IMG/VR virus record: IMGVR_UViG_2913177423_000004
Reading direction: 5' to 3' (one strand)
Length of the DNA stretch: 5,329 nt
Source: a virus
Lineage: Duplodnaviria > Heunggongvirae > Uroviricota > Caudoviricetes
Numbering within the stretch: position 1 is the first letter of the stretch; each line of letters starts with the position of its first letter. This document shows, piece after piece, positions 2 to 5,329 of this stretch. The notes under the pieces were generated by a model that ran no database searches, was not told the origin of the DNA, and saw only the letters and a list, made by a program, of their open reading frames with translations. The translations under genes and the position numbers were made by a program.

Positions 2-166
2 CCAGTTTTTGTTGACCACTACAACGTTGACCTGGCCGCCAGCGGCGTTGCCTACAAAGAGCGGATGAATATACCGGTAATTGCAGAACAGGTAGCCCGT
101 GAGCAACCGGAGAACTTGCACACCTATTTCATGGAACGGCTACGATACTGGCCGGCGTTGAATTAA
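2..166 (+). CDS. 3' end of an upstream phage gene (partial; start lies outside the window), product unknown
   Basis: Frame-2 reading frame is open from the window edge to TAA at 164..166 (54 sense codons, ...[13 protein letters not shown]). GC-rich third codon positions. Absent from the ORF track because it is truncated. Product not recognised. Confidence 0.4.
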
Positions 167-438: not shown

Positions 439-1140
439 ATGCCCAAAATTACCGGTGTTCTAGTGAGCCACCATGTGTTCGATATAAAAAAAGACATGGC
501 TAATGGTTCATTCCCGAAAACATTATTTCCAGGCGCGACATTTCAGATGGTGGTTGACAATGATGTTGTCAATAATAATACGTTGGACTGGAGTGTTGTC
601 ACCAATGCGGGAGACAATTCGCTGACTGTAAATCAGGACGGCGTGGTGTCATTTTCAAATGATATTGATGAAAGTTGCATTGGTAAAACATTTGTTATTT
701 TTGCGAAGGATAAAGCCACAGGGAAAAATGTGTCATCTTATTTAATTAAACCTTATCGCTTCTTTAAACCTCGTACCGCAACGTCGGACAGATTTTACGA
801 TGCATTGTTTTGGATTGAGGATAAAAAAGGGACTGTCCCGGCACGACGCGATATCAATAATGTCCCTTTCGATGAACTGACGGGAGAAATGTTTCATGAT
901 GTAAAACGTGAAGTGAATTCCGGGCTTTTTCAGGAATGGGGATTTTTACTGTTTAGTGGGTGGACTAATCCTGTACGTGGTGATATTGGTAGTCTCGAAT
1001 CAGAAATTTTCACTTTAGAAAATGACAGTATATTTATATCGACAGTCAACTCCCTCCCATACTCCAGAGATCTCCATGATGATATGGACTCCCAGTCTGC
1101 ACAGGCTGTAGCGTTTTACGGGGAATCTGTTGTTTCCTGA
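439..1140 (+). CDS. Hypothetical protein, 233 aa, AT-rich orphan gene; possible beta-rich Ig-like N-terminal region; function unknown
   Basis: ATG at 439 is preceded by a strong Shine-Dalgarno (taaggag at 426..432, 6-nt spacer). Uninterrupted 233-codon frame ending TGA at 1138..1140. Composition is visibly more AT-rich than int or ybhC. No signal peptide and no catalytic motif that I can name. Residues ~30-100 (ATFQMVVDNDVV...LDWSVVTNAGDNSLTVNQDGVVSF...) have the alternating pattern of a bacterial Ig-like domain, but this is an impression, not a match. Confidence 0.8.
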   Translation: MPKITGVLVSHHVFDIKKDMANGSFPKTLFPGATFQMVVDNDVVNNNTLDWSVVTNAGDNSLTVNQDGVVSFSNDIDESCIGKTFVIFAKDKATGKNVSSYLIKPYRFFKPRTATSDRFYDALFWIEDKKGTVPARRDINNVPFDELTGEMFHDVKREVNSGLFQEWGFLLFSGWTNPVRGDIGSLESEIFTLENDSIFISTVNSLPYSRDLHDDMDSQSAQAVAFYGESVVS

Positions 1141-1305: not shown

Positions 1306-1476
1306 CGCGGGTGACAGCCATTACCGCGAAGGCATATTGCAAGGGGCGTTGCTTGTGGTCGATTCCTCACTCACTCCAGTTGATGGTTCGCTGCTTGTAT
1401 GTGCTTATCGCATAAAGAGATATCGGAAGCATCCGCGCCGCTATGATTGTCTTTCTCCTGATGCAGGAAAAGCAGA

Positions 1477-1791
1477 ATGGCTAAATCAGCAGCAGAGCGC
1501 AAAGCCGATCAGAGAGCCAAGCAAGCATCATCCGGTATGCGTAAGCTGGAGCTTGTACTTGATGCTCAGGAAATTGAAATGCTGGAGCGTAACTGTGCCA
1601 CGCGTCGCTTCAGGCGTGCGCCTTACGAGTTTGGTGAGTACATCGCGTTACTGAGCCGCCAGGATGATGCACTTGTGCGCTGGCGTATAAAATCGATCAG
1701 CATAAAACGTTGCGGTAAGTGCGGCGAGAGAGTTCCTGTTAATTCATGCCCGTGTAATGGTGACTCACAATGCTGGGTGACCAAAGGCTGA
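1477..1791 (+). CDS. Hypothetical small protein, 104 aa, charged helical N-terminal part plus C-terminal Cys cluster (putative zinc ribbon); possibly an Ea8.5-like protein
   Basis: ATG at 1477 with AGGA at 1465..1468 (8-nt spacer); stop TGA at 1789..1791. C-terminus RCGKCGERVPVNSCPCNGDSQC has a C-x2-C-x8-C-x-C-x5-C spacing typical of a zinc-binding knuckle. The overlapping ORF 1337..1654 in another frame looks non-protein-like. An alternative start at the internal Met (codon 21, nt 1537) cannot be excluded. The Ea8.5 comparison is from memory of its described homeodomain/zinc-finger fold, not from sequence alignment. Confidence 0.6.
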   Translation: MAKSAAERKADQRAKQASSGMRKLELVLDAQEIEMLERNCATRRFRRAPYEFGEYIALLSRQDDALVRWRIKSISIKRCGKCGERVPVNSCPCNGDSQCWVTKG

Positions 1792-1820
1792 TTCGAATTT
1801 AAGAACTGAAAGAACACCAA

Positions 1821-1841
1821 GCCGCCTGATGGCGGTTTTTT
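1821..1841 (+). terminator. Rho-independent terminator-like hairpin (GC stem + T6)
   Basis: gccgcc tgat ggcgg followed by tttttt (1836..1841), 30 bp downstream of the 104-aa ORF stop. The first in-frame ATG of the next ORF (1829) lies inside this stem-loop, so it is unlikely to be the real start. Confidence 0.6.
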
Positions 1842-1855
1842 ATTGGAGACAAGAA

Positions 1856-2200
1856 ATGTCAGATTTGGCTATGAAGATTTTGAAATGGCAAACGACTGGC
1901 GATGTCGGCATCAGTAGCGCAACTCTTGCCTCAATCGCATGTGGACTGAAAAAGAATATCTATGGTCATCACTTCGGTGCTCCACATGACGCAGCCGATT
2001 TCCGACGATGCGTTGCACTTGTTGAGCAGATTCCAGAAATCAGAGATTCATTCGACAAGGTTGCAAAGCGCGTTCCGGCATTCAAAGGCATCCTCAACGA
2101 ATGGGATTCTCTCGTTGCTCTGTTGAAGTCTGAAATGAAGATACACGGAAACAAAGCACCAGAAACTTACAGAAGAATTAGCGAGCTACGCAAGTACTAA
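1856..2200 (+). CDS. Hypothetical protein, 114 aa (MSDLAMKILKWQ...), function unknown
   Basis: ATG at 1856 preceded by GGAG at 1845..1848 (7-nt spacer); stop TAA at 2198..2200. The ORF track starts it at 1829 (123 aa), but that ATG is inside the upstream terminator hairpin. The gene is followed by two hairpins (2206..2224 and 2259..2279). Product not recognised. Confidence 0.7.
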   Translation: MSDLAMKILKWQTTGDVGISSATLASIACGLKKNIYGHHFGAPHDAADFRRCVALVEQIPEIRDSFDKVAKRVPAFKGILNEWDSLVALLKSEMKIHGNKAPETYRRISELRKY

Positions 2201-2258: not shown

Positions 2259-2279
2259 GCCGCATCAATGCGGCTTTTT
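2259..2279 (+). terminator. Rho-independent terminator-like hairpin (stem + T5) immediately upstream of the pI / xis region
   Basis: gccgca tcaa tgcggc followed by ttttt (2275..2279). A second hairpin (gcctca cactcga tgaggc, 2206..2224) sits directly after the stop codon of the 114-aa gene. Confidence 0.55.
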
Positions 2280-2280
2280 C

Positions 2281-2294
2281 TTGCGTGTAATTGC
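2281..2294 (+). promoter_or_regulatory. cII-binding box (TTGC-N6-TTGC) of the int promoter pI
   Basis: ttgc gtgtaa ttgc at 2281..2294, immediately upstream of and overlapping the xis translation initiation region. This matches the established arrangement of lambda pI, where the cII-activated promoter overlaps the start of xis so that the transcript encodes Int but not Xis. Confidence 0.65.
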
Positions 2295-2306
2295 GGAGAC
2301 TTTGCG

Positions 2307-2525
2307 ATGTACTTGACACTTCAGGAGTGGAACGCACGCCAGCGACGCCCAAGAAGCCTTGAAACAGTTCGTCGATGGGTACGCGAGTGCAGGATATTCC
2401 CTCCTCCGGTTAAAGATGGAAGAGAGTATCTGTTCCACGAATCAGCGGTAAAGGTTGACTTAAATCGACCAGTAACAGGTAGCCTTTTGAAGAGGATCAA
2501 AAATGGGAAGAAGGCGAAGTCATGA
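2307..2525 (+). CDS. xis: Excisionase Xis (lambda-type), 72 aa
   Basis: Protein MYLTLQEWNARQRRPRSLETVRRWVRECRIFPPPVKDGREYLFHESAVKVDLNRPVTGSLLKRIKNGKKAKS matches lambda Xis as I recall it. GGAG at 2295..2298 precedes the ATG at 2307. The ORF-track start at 2268 lies inside the upstream terminator hairpin and is rejected. The 3' end overlaps the int start by 23 bp, as in lambda. Confidence 0.95.
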   Translation: MYLTLQEWNARQRRPRSLETVRRWVRECRIFPPPVKDGREYLFHESAVKVDLNRPVTGSLLKRIKNGKKAKS

Positions 2526-3573
2526 GCGCCGGGATTTACCCCCTAATCTTTATATAAGAAACAATGGATATTACTGCTACAGGGACCCAAGGACGGGTAA
2601 AGAGTTTGGATTAGGCCGAGACAGGAGGATAGCAATCACTGAAGCTATACAGGCCAACATTGAGTTATTTTCAGGACACAAGCACAAGCCTCTGACAGCG
2701 AGAATCAACAGTGATAATTCTGTTACGTTACATTCATGGCTTGATCGCTACGAAAAAATCCTCGCCAGCAGAGGAATCAAGCAGAAGACACTCATAAATT
2801 ACATGAGCAAAATTAAAGCAATAAGGAGGGGTCTGCCTGATGCTCCACTTGAAGACATCACCACAAAAGAAATTGCGGCAATGCTCAATGGATACATAGA
2901 CGAGGGCAAGGCGGCGTCAGCCAAGTTAATCAGATCAACACTGAGCGATGCATTCCGAGAGGCAATAGCTGAAGGCCATATAACAACAAACCCGGTCGCT
3001 GCCACTCGCGCAGCAAAATCAGAGGTAAGGAGATCAAGACTTACGGCTGACGAATACCTGAAAATTTATCAAGCAGCAGAATCATCACCATGTTGGCTCA
3101 GACTTGCAATGGAACTGGCTGTTGTTACCGGGCAGCGAGTTGGTGATTTATGCGAAATGAAGTGGTCTGATATCGTAGATGGATATCTTTATGTCGAGCA
3201 AAGCAAAACAGGCGTAAAAATTGCCATCCCTACAACATTGCATGTTGATGCTCTCGGGATATCAATGAAGGAAACACTTGATAAATGCAAAGAGATTCTT
3301 GGCGGAGAAACCATAATTGCATCTACTCGTCGTGAACCGCTTTCATCCGGCACAGTATCAAGGTATTTTATGCGCGCACGAAAAGCATCAGGTCTTTCCT
3401 TCGAAGGGGATCCGCCAACCTTTCACGAGTTGCGCAGTTTGTCTGCAAGACTCTATGAGAAGCAGATAAGCGATAAATTTGCTCAACATCTTCTCGGGCA
3501 TAAGTCGGACACCATGGCATCACAGTATCGTGATGACAGAGGCAGGGAGTGGGACAAAATTGAAATCAAATAA
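2503..3573 (+). CDS. int: Tyrosine site-specific integrase Int (lambda-type), 356 aa
   Basis: Protein MGRRRSHERRDLPPNLYIRNNGYYCYRDPRTGKEFGLGRD...HLLGHKSDTMASQYRDDRGREWDKIEIK matches lambda Int in length and sequence as far as I can recall, including the C-terminal catalytic region (R...HxxR...Y). GAGG at 2492..2495 precedes the ATG at 2503. Confidence 0.97.
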   Translation: MGRRRSHERRDLPPNLYIRNNGYYCYRDPRTGKEFGLGRDRRIAITEAIQANIELFSGHKHKPLTARINSDNSVTLHSWLDRYEKILASRGIKQKTLINYMSKIKAIRRGLPDAPLEDITTKEIAAMLNGYIDEGKAASAKLIRSTLSDAFREAIAEGHITTNPVAATRAAKSEVRRSRLTADEYLKIYQAAESSPCWLRLAMELAVVTGQRVGDLCEMKWSDIVDGYLYVEQSKTGVKIAIPTTLHVDALGISMKETLDKCKEILGGETIIASTRREPLSSGTVSRYFMRARKASGLSFEGDPPTFHELRSLSARLYEKQISDKFAQHLLGHKSDTMASQYRDDRGREWDKIEIK

Positions 3574-3708: not shown

Positions 3709-4992
3709 GTGAACACATTTTCAGTTTCCCGTCTGGCGCTGGCACTGGCTTTTGGCGTGACGCTGACCGCCTGTAGCTCAACACCGCCCGATCAACGTCC
3801 TTCTGATCAAACCGCGCCTGGTACCTCTTCTCGCCCGATTCTGTCGGCAAAAGAAGCGCAGAATTTCGATGCTCAACACTATTTTGCATCCCTGACACCA
3901 GGTGCTGCAGCGTGGAATCCTTCCCCGATTACCCTGCCTGCGCAACCTGACTTTGTTGTCGGCCCGGCGGGTACCCAAGGTGTAACGCATACCACGATTC
4001 AGGCAGCGGTGGATGCGGCAATTATCAAGCGTACCAACAAGCGCCAGTATATTGCCGTGATGCCTGGTGAGTATGAAGGCACGGTCTATGTCCCTGCCGC
4101 TCCGGGTGGAATTACTCTGTACGGTACAGGTGAAAAACCGATTGATGTGAAGATTGGGCTTTCCCTTGATGGGAGCATGAGCCCTGCCGACTGGCGTCAC
4201 GACGTCAACCCGCGCGGCAAATATATGCCAGGTAAACCAGCGTGGTACATGTACGATAGCTGCCAGAGCAAACGCAGCGACAGTATTGGCGTGCTCTGTT
4301 CTGCGGTTTTCTGGTCACAAAACAATGGCCTGCAACTGCAAAACCTGACCATCGAAAACACGCTGGGCGATAGCGTAGATGCGGGTAACCATCCGGCGGT
4401 GGCACTGCGTACTGATGGCGACAAAGTGCAGATCAATAACGTCAACATTCTCGGTCGTCAGAACACCTTCTTTGTCACCAACAGTGGTGTGCAAAACCGT
4501 CTGGAAACCAATCGTCAACCGCGTACTCTGGTGACGAATAGCTATATTGAAGGGGATGTGGATATCGTTTCTGGTCGCGGCGCGGTGGTGTTCGATAATA
4601 CCGAATTCCGCGTGGTGAACTCCCGTACTCAGCAAGAAGCGTATGTGTTTGCACCGGCTACGCTGTCTAACATCTATTACGGTTTCCTCGCCGTAAACAG
4701 CCGTTTCAATGCTTCCGGTGATGGCGTGGCGCAACTGGGCCGCTCGCTGGATGTTGATGCCAATACCAACGGTCAGGTGGTGATCCGTGATAGCGCCATC
4801 AACGAAGGTTTTAACACGGCTAAACCGTGGGCCGATGCGGTGATTTCCAATCGTCCATTTGCGGGTAATACCGGCAGCGTTGACGATAGCGACGAAGTAC
4901 AGCGCAATCTGAATGACACTAACTACAACCGCATGTGGGAATACAATAACCGCGGCGTGGGTAGCAAAGTGGTTGCAGAAGCGAAGAAGTAA
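3709..4992 (+). CDS. ybhC: Outer-membrane lipoprotein YbhC (pectinesterase-family fold, putative acyl-CoA thioesterase), 427 aa
   Basis: GTG start at 3709 with GGAG at 3699..3702. N-terminus MNTFSVSRLALALAFGVTLTAC has a lipoprotein signal peptide and lipobox (LTAC). Length and sequence match E. coli YbhC as I recall it. It is the host gene adjacent to the lambda attachment site on the gal side. Confidence 0.93.
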   Translation: MNTFSVSRLALALAFGVTLTACSSTPPDQRPSDQTAPGTSSRPILSAKEAQNFDAQHYFASLTPGAAAWNPSPITLPAQPDFVVGPAGTQGVTHTTIQAAVDAAIIKRTNKRQYIAVMPGEYEGTVYVPAAPGGITLYGTGEKPIDVKIGLSLDGSMSPADWRHDVNPRGKYMPGKPAWYMYDSCQSKRSDSIGVLCSAVFWSQNNGLQLQNLTIENTLGDSVDAGNHPAVALRTDGDKVQINNVNILGRQNTFFVTNSGVQNRLETNRQPRTLVTNSYIEGDVDIVSGRGAVVFDNTEFRVVNSRTQQEAYVFAPATLSNIYYGFLAVNSRFNASGDGVAQLGRSLDVDANTNGQVVIRDSAINEGFNTAKPWADAVISNRPFAGNTGSVDDSDEVQRNLNDTNYNRMWEYNNRGVGSKVVAEAKK

Positions 4993-5008: not shown

Positions 5009-5285
5009 GCCGGATGCGGTGTAAACGCCTTATCCGGCCTACGGTTCGATGCGATTTGTAGGTCGGATAAGATGCGCAAGCATCGCATCCGACAATAAGT
5101 GCCGAAATGCGGCGTAAACGCCTTATCCGGACTACGGTTCGATGCGATTTGTAGGTCGGATAAGATGCGCAAGCATCGCATCCGACAATAAATGCCGGAT
5201 GCGGCGTGACCGCCTTATCCGGCCTACGGTTCGATGCGATTTGTAGGTCGGATAAGATGCGCAAGCATCGCATCCGACAATAAGT
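5009..5285. repeat. Three tandem REP/BIME units (about 92 bp each), the E. coli repetitive extragenic palindrome cluster downstream of ybhC
   Basis: Units at 5009..5100, 5101..5193 and 5194..5285. Each contains gccggatgcggcgtaaacgccttatccggcctac (the canonical REP palindrome) followed by a second palindromic unit ...gtaggtcggataagatgcgcaagcatcgcatccgac.... A partial fourth copy starts at 5286. The minus-strand ORFs 4923..5273 and 4999..5181 are artefacts of these repeats. Confidence 0.9.
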
Positions 5286-5329
5286 GCCGGATGTGTAGTG
5301 GCATAGTAAATTTGGCCACCTGAATAGAG

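Follow-up and report, generated by a model that had tools for sequence, protein, structure and literature searches.

Which protein is encoded by the small gene at 1477..1791, and does the copy present here still serve a function? The stretch of DNA analysed here, in its whole length of 5,329 nt called the window, covers the end of a lambdoid prophage that lies towards int; the prophage is integrated at the lambda attachment site beside ybhC. An earlier note had proposed for this gene a small protein with a basic, helical-looking region in front of a C-terminal cluster of cysteines, and had considered a relationship to lambda Ea8.5. Published work describes the fold of Ea8.5 as a homeodomain fused to a zinc finger.

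The ORF under study runs on the plus strand from an ATG at 1477-1479 to a TGA at 1789-1791. In the ORF listing it encodes 104 aa with the C-terminal end RCGKCGERVPVNSCPCNGDSQCWVTKG, predicted to be a ribbon-helix-helix (RHH) protein with a Cys4 zinc knuckle. By sequence inspection, a Shine-Dalgarno-like AGGA (1465..1468, plus strand) is located 8 nt 5' of the ATG. Compared with the epsilon15 homologue the gene shows 86 nt differences, distributed 21/13/52 across codon positions 1/2/3, and a dN/dS of 0.16. The ratio is 0.09 between the homologues of TL-2011b and epsilon15 and ranges from 0.09 to 0.3 against distant family members. This third-position bias and these dN/dS values identify 1477..1791 as the coding frame. 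The ORF is a genuine accessory gene of lambdoid prophages, and the small protein with a cysteine-rich end exists at 1477-1791 as it had been described, including its C-terminus. An overlapping frame, 1337..1654, had been named as the possible translated one. Codon bias, dN/dS and the matches of that frame to a HumD remnant all decided for 1477..1791.

Only the first approximately 54 residues of frame 1337..1654 are UmuD/HumD-like (phrog_811, phrog_10470 and NCBIfam HumD, the latter with E 4.9e-12), and beyond these the frame passes out of frame through the gene that is conserved in the other one. The matching part belongs to a humD/umuD'-like pseudogene remnant (1310..1480, plus strand), which overlaps the start of our gene by a few bases. 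It has about 82% amino acid identity to P1 HumD and 78% nucleotide identity to humD, misses both ends (HumD model positions 1-42 and 100-129) and has a 12-nt deletion relative to the copy in phage Chlobot. The remnant accompanies the gene for the predicted RHH-zinc protein in all lambdoid copies seen; in E. coli prophages the fragment is labelled by PGAP as an incomplete 'DNA repair protein'.

On the basis of its sequence, the 104-aa protein is a member of PHROG 536, the family of epsilon15 gp49 and N15 gp46. It matches the phrog_536 profile with E 2.6e-45, residues 1-104 aligning to profile positions 2-107 of 115. A single-sequence phmmer search found 447 homologous clusters at 90% identity and a profile search 567, all of which carry the name 'hypothetical protein' and lack a Pfam domain; an exhaustive HMMER scan gave about 115 family clusters at 50% identity. 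By tblastn, homologues were detected in 58 phage genomes, among them epsilon15, phiV10, TL-2011b, SPN1S and ZF40, but also P2-like Yersinia phages, Aeromonas phages and Vibrio phages. The alignments to phiV10, TL-2011b and epsilon15 extend over 100% of the length, with 72% identity to epsilon15 gp49 and 88% to the phiV10 homologue. Overall, the family ranges over lambdoid, epsilon15-like, N15-like and P2-like temperate phages of Enterobacterales. The epsilon15 record describes gp49 as similar to N15 gp46, and the entry for PHROG 536, epsilon15 gp49 and N15 gp46 carries the annotation 'transcriptional regulator'. A search of the literature yielded no functional study of epsilon15 gp49, of other family members or of RHH-zinc phage proteins. 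The family is already catalogued and uncharacterised, and the 104-aa protein is ordinary in kind. The homology to epsilon15 gp49 and N15 gp46 is full-length and includes the basic helix, the predicted RHH core and the Cys4 motif. However, these two have the usual family length of 112 aa and end in a WHE(L/T)KL.. tail, the family consensus being G-W-H-E-(L/T)-K-L-x-x, whereas the window protein lacks this tail. The gene locations differ as well: ORF 1477..1791 lies in a lambdoid exo-xis region, the epsilon15 gp49 gene at the end of the early-right operon.

A structural model was calculated with AF2 from an alignment of 39 sequences (mean pLDDT 86.6). It consists of a helix at residues 5-18, an extended segment at 19-29 (GMRKLELVLD), a helix at 30-43, an 8-residue loop carrying a conserved PY, a long helix at 52-75 and a knuckle. 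The first helix, AERKADQRAKQASS, is encoded at 1489..1530 (plus strand) and was delimited by the AF2 secondary structure, alignment A2 and hhalign, in which it aligns with a basic segment in front of the RHH domain of E. coli YbfE. Residues R8 and R13 of this helix are nearly invariant in the family alignment, as are R43, Y50, E54, L59 and P87 outside the Cys motif. The basic helical region that had been noticed in front of the cysteines is therefore supported by the modelled helices and by R8 and R13; judged from alignment and model, it is probably DNA-binding. A predicted RHH core follows at residues 20-75 (1534..1701, plus strand). The AF2 monomer shows a strand-helix-helix topology in which the ribbon strand appears as an extended segment.

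Independently of the model, comparison of profiles points to the same fold. When the family profile A2 was aligned to YbfE by hhalign, residues 8-70 of the window protein matched YbfE 37-94 with a probability of 93.5% and an E of 2.2e-7. The YbfE query was 100% identical to the annotated ybfE, and its residues 52-89 are Pfam RHH_1 (E 1.7e-10, 40.9 bits versus a cut-off of 20.5). NCBIfam also gave a weak YbfE match ('LexA regulated protein', E 0.0066) for the 104-aa protein itself. The Pfam RHH models did not match the 104-aa protein directly, and one or two of 39 family members matched RepB-RCR_reg, RHH_5 or RHH_1 weakly (E 0.01-0.07). From the AF2 model, the hhalign result and the NCBIfam and Pfam matches we take the protein to consist of a basic arm or helix, a putative RHH domain and a Cys4 zinc knuckle. 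The profile alignment indicates that the predicted RHH domain is distantly homologous to YbfE. Both YbfE and the PHROG 536 family have about 100 aa and a basic segment, behind which come G-[LIVM]-[KR]-[KR]-[LV]-E-L-x-L and two helices, and the strands of YbfE and the 104-aa protein have the pattern K/R-x-E-x-x in common. In contrast, YbfE (RHH_1, CopG family) has no C-terminal Cys4 knuckle and an inter-helix loop that is 5 residues shorter. To our knowledge, the function of YbfE itself has not been described. The links to YbfE and humD prompted a search for LexA boxes, and no site was found near ORF 1477..1791. Searches of the PDB sequences with the 104-aa protein and with the family profile gave nothing significant, and Foldseek against PDB and BFVD nothing useful; the single match in BFVD, labelled 'ubiquitin-binding zinc finger', belongs to this family itself and is a fragment of 46 aa.

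The cysteines were examined in a family alignment of 42 members, the most distant of which have about 25% identity. In 41 of these the pattern CxxC-x6-10-C-x7-9-C is found, followed by W, F or Y. In the window protein the spacing is CxxC-x8-C-x7-C, and the predicted zinc-knuckle motif CGKCG-x7-C-x7-C is encoded at 1711..1773 (plus strand) by C79 (1711-1713), C82 (1720-1722), C91 (1747-1749) and C99 (1771-1773), with the aromatic W100 next to it. C79 and C82 are invariant among the 42 members and C99 nearly so. A further cysteine, C93 (1753-1755), the second of 'CPC', shows no conservation in this alignment. Therefore, the motif is Cys4 and not Cys5, and of the zinc ribbon or knuckle with four or five cysteines that had been suggested, the version with four and a knuckle-like spacing stands, whereas the fifth cysteine drops out as variable. 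In the AF2 models the CxxC is part of a knuckle with a beta-bridge at residues 78/85, and directly after C99 a helix starts. From alignment and models we infer a treble-clef or zinc-knuckle-like geometry, and the knuckle most likely holds one structural zinc ion.

Genomic location was compared among the carriers of this family. The identical 104-aa protein is encoded on 16 contigs of 'unclassified Escherichia' (cryptic clades). Four prophage backgrounds were displayed, which have a module of the theta-like gene, the Invasin_D4 ORF, the gene for the 104-aa protein and ORF114 in common, within the order cI-N-ral-cIII-kil-recombination genes-theta-Invasin_D4 ORF-104-aa gene-ORF114-(xis)-int. All four modules lie inside apparently intact early-left operons, which also contain ssb and abc2, and the prophages have different integrases and occupy different chromosomal sites. 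In E. coli prophages a 112-aa form is at the same exo-xis position, with TraR/DksA-like, Ea22 and 204-aa genes to one side of it and DUF2513-orf55-(ORF114)-xis-int to the other. In epsilon15-like phages the homologue closes the early operon, overlapped translationally, and a terminator and the terminase genes come directly after it, and in N15-like phages it is found among accessory genes downstream of Q. The downstream neighbour thus varies between DUF2513 (E. coli lambdoids), ORF114 (window), a 73-78-aa ORF (N15-like) and a terminator or terminase gene (epsilon15-like), and the upstream neighbours vary, too. Across six phage contexts no conserved partner gene, toxin or other, was detected. 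Since no neighbour is conserved, the gene moves as a single-gene module, which makes a role in a toxin-antitoxin or partition system unlikely.

In the record of phage Chlobot (PP925838.1) the corresponding region (4004-4482 of the locus L001 used here) is annotated as two products, a 'UmuD-like protein' of 105 aa and a 'transcriptional regulator' of 46 aa. The intact homologue of 112 aa, which according to the alignment with ORF 1477..1791 extends over 17149-17484 of the record, is not annotated as such.

Within the window, the region upstream of the gene is a mosaic of cargo and remnants. The window opens at 1-23 with the right end of an IS3-family (IS1397-like) element and closes at 5294-5329 with the left end of one, both matching the same IS copy in the Escherichia marmotae locus L012, where an IS3-family transposase is encoded. 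Probably the window is an entire contig with repeated IS copies at its borders. The IS copy at the downstream border lies in a REP/BIME cluster, with matches to Rfam naRNA4 at 5061-5132 and 5154-5224. Next to the first IS end follows the 3' part of a gene resembling the DNA polymerase III theta gene or P1 hot (about 14-166, plus strand; NCBIfam PRK10969, E 6.4e-21), which has 86% nucleotide identity to P1 hot and whose 5' end is cut off by the IS element. This gene fragment and the humD remnant together indicate a P1-like hot/humD module within the lambdoid pL operon. A cargo ORF of 233 aa (439-1140, plus strand; Pfam Invasin_D4, E 1.6e-8) has an AT-rich upstream region and is flanked by inverted repeats, with a perfect 34-nt repeat at 239-272 and 1226-1259 and imperfect extensions (205-272 and 1226-1325), the right arm of which extends into the humD-like remnant. 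They may have originated as an inverted duplication, an invertible segment or an insertion scar. Megablast against complete E. coli genomes and plasmids did not detect this module of cargo ORF and inverted repeats, and it is kept in several prophages of cryptic Escherichia. The palindrome at 1159-1197, with a stem of 19 bp, had been put forward as a possible target of the protein. It resembles a terminator hairpin belonging to the upstream cargo ORF, and none of the 22 other loci fetched contains it, not even those with a homologue; the proposal found no support.

Directly 3' of ORF 1477..1791, a 3' remnant of a lambda-orf55-like gene (1791..1845, plus strand) matches the end of orf55 in Chlobot, and a terminator scan detected an intrinsic terminator in it, with its stem at 1819-1838 and a T run behind. 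It is followed on the plus strand by a homologue of ORF114 of phages 434 and HK022 (1856..2200; PHROG 1229, phrog_1229 E 2.6e-51), for which megablast of the gene matched 434, HK022 and mEp phages and BLASTP gave no alignment to Ea8.5. The ORF114 gene is bracketed by two related terminator modules, at 1819-1845 (GCCGCCTGATGGCGG-T run) and 2259-2285 (GCCGCATCAATGCGGC-T run). In phage Chlobot the terminator occurs once and ORF114 is absent; therefore, ORF114 looks like a moron-type insertion between duplicated terminators. The excisionase gene xis (2307..2525, plus strand; Pfam Exc, E 1.4e-40, from residue 14 of ORF 2268..2525) and a lambda-type integrase gene (2503..3573, plus strand; ORF listing and matches to integrase-annotated E. 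coli genes) come next, and after the att junction host ybhC (3709-4992, matching annotated E. coli ybhC).

The end of our gene coincides with a junction at 1790..1791, a deletion or mosaic boundary. In the DNA alignment, codon 105 is TGA in the window but TGG in phage Chlobot and in E. coli prophages, and the last 8 residues (WHETKLMI) are gone. By blastn against the Chlobot locus, window 1346-1790 corresponds to 4001-4457 and window 1791-1845 to 5152-5206. The homology to Chlobot and the E. coli prophages thus stops at 1790/1791 and restarts about 0.7 kb further on, with the last orf55 codons and the terminator, from which we conclude that a deletion took the DUF2513 gene, most of orf55 and the 8 residues of the protein. 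The same junction is present in the E. marmotae locus L012 and in assemblies of cryptic-clade Escherichia. The window protein ends at G104 and misses the conserved tail G-W-H-E-L-x-L (about 8 residues), which in the full-length AF2 model completes a helix at 100-107 and also provides the terminal L-x-L. AF2 modelled the truncated form with the same confidence as the full-length one.

What might the protein do? We consider it reasonably probable that it is an early-expressed, dimeric RHH DNA-binding regulator with a structural Cys4 zinc site, directed at a phage or host target. The position in the exo-xis part of the pL operon suggests early transcription of ORF 1477..1791, and judged from this synteny it would be transcribed from pL after infection or induction. 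By analogy to other RHH proteins, the strand at residues 21-28 would dimerise into a two-stranded ribbon, which would read the major groove of DNA. The basic N-terminal helix could supply extra DNA contacts, and the zinc knuckle with the C-terminal helix may act as a rigid unit through which larger assemblies form or a partner is bound. In this way the protein would regulate, most likely repress, transcription of a phage or host target in a sequence-specific manner. All steps from zinc binding and dimerisation to contact with DNA and regulation are inferred from the RHH homology and the conserved Cys4, and the truncated 104-aa allele may be active or not. Several points weigh against this regulator: the 104-aa protein matches no Pfam RHH model directly, the ribbon is seen in the monomer model only as the extended segment, and neither a candidate operator nor a conserved partner gene was found. 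Further points are specific to the allele in the window. It is devoid of the conserved tail with part of helix 100-107 and the terminal L-x-L, it has S at position 60, which is hydrophobic in the family, and the IS end at 1-23 may separate its module from pL.

These latter points lead to the alternative that the allele in the window is decaying or inactive and has no present role, the family being functional elsewhere. Besides the junction, S60 and the interruption of the upstream theta-like gene by the IS end, the pseudogene directly upstream of the ORF fits such a view. Furthermore, sister copies have changes at near-invariant sites, Y50C in Chlobot and in the E. coli copies L006 and L014, and R43C in L012. 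Among the closest lambdoid copies 5-6 non-synonymous substitutions stand against 0-1 synonymous ones (dN/dS about 0.9-1.4, from very small counts). As these changes are mostly non-synonymous, the lambdoid lineage may be under relaxed constraint, although so few substitutions do not allow a firm dN/dS. However, the ORF is intact and has a good Shine-Dalgarno sequence, the model of the shortened form loses nothing in confidence, and the occurrence of the identical protein on 16 contigs, in four different and apparently intact prophage backgrounds, suggests maintenance and spread. Therefore, we regard decay as possible but unlikely.

A zinc-finger protein of the TraR/DksA or Ogr/Delta type, which binds RNA polymerase and reprograms host transcription like lambda Orf73, is very improbable. 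The family profile does give a weak, non-significant match to TraR in PDB sequences (E 0.41), covering the long helix and the Cys motif, and TraR homologues occur in the same exo-xis regions (compare PMC9239242). But a zf-dskA_traR match in Pfam is absent, the spacing CxxC-x8-C-x7-C is not the CxxC-x17-CxxC of DksA/TraR, and the evidence for an RHH fold contradicts this type.

An RHH-type antitoxin, or an RHH centromere-binding or partition protein, appears slightly less probable still: no adjacent gene is conserved, with different neighbours in every phage group examined, the PADLOC defence models gave no match, and there is no partition ATPase nearby. Least probable of all is an Ea8.5-like protein with a homologous or analogous homeodomain/zinc-finger fold, for which the exo-xis location two genes upstream of xis, the small size and the cysteine-rich C-terminus speak, but which is largely refuted by BLASTP (E = 24 against Ea8.5 from NC_001416), hhalign with the family profile (probability 0.2%) and Pfam, where the 104-aa protein matched no family at E <= 1, PF20735 Lambda_ea8_5 included, to which Ea8.5 itself matches with 1.1e-48.

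Membership in the Ea8.5 family was thus rejected by BLASTP, hhalign, Pfam and the fold search. What remains of the suggested relationship is the location. The gene is indeed in the exo-xis region, the second one upstream of xis, but position alone does not define a family. Lambda Ea8.5 (PF20735; structures 2M7A and 2M7B) resembles the 104-aa protein in being a small, Cys-containing accessory protein of the exo-xis region that is expressed early, presumably so in our case. There is no similarity in sequence, profile or fold, the 104-aa protein being predicted as RHH and not homeodomain-like.

Classical RHH regulators with C-terminal accessory domains include Arc, CopG, AmrZ, NikR, MatP and the RHH antitoxins. 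Their C-terminal domains are ligand-binding, coiled-coil or toxin-binding, whereas the 104-aa protein, for which DNA binding is predicted, has a Cys4 knuckle of about 25 residues at this place. Replacing the Ea8.5 identity by RHH plus zinc knuckle gives a testable hypothesis, that of a dimeric DNA-binding regulator, for a recurrent small ORF. It also allows annotations to be corrected, such as the split 'UmuD-like protein' and 'transcriptional regulator' in phage Chlobot. The gain is small, as the fold class is common and the copy in the window is truncated. A broader reading, which we put forward tentatively and hold to be rather doubtful, is that PHROG 536 represents a distinct class of phage regulators, combining RHH and Cys4 knuckle in a portable single-gene module that ends early accessory operons. 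Such a class would be comparable to the recently described Aca14 regulators, anti-CRISPR-associated RHH repressors of phages with a helical extension, which are located at the end of accessory or anti-defence operons (PMC13551039). The likeness, a phage RHH protein (predicted here) in an accessory operon, is an analogy only, and beside PHROG 536 genes neither an acr gene nor a conserved operator was identified. If true, members of this family would control host genes or anti-defence and accessory genes, or would bias the choice between lysis and lysogeny like other genes of the exo-xis region.
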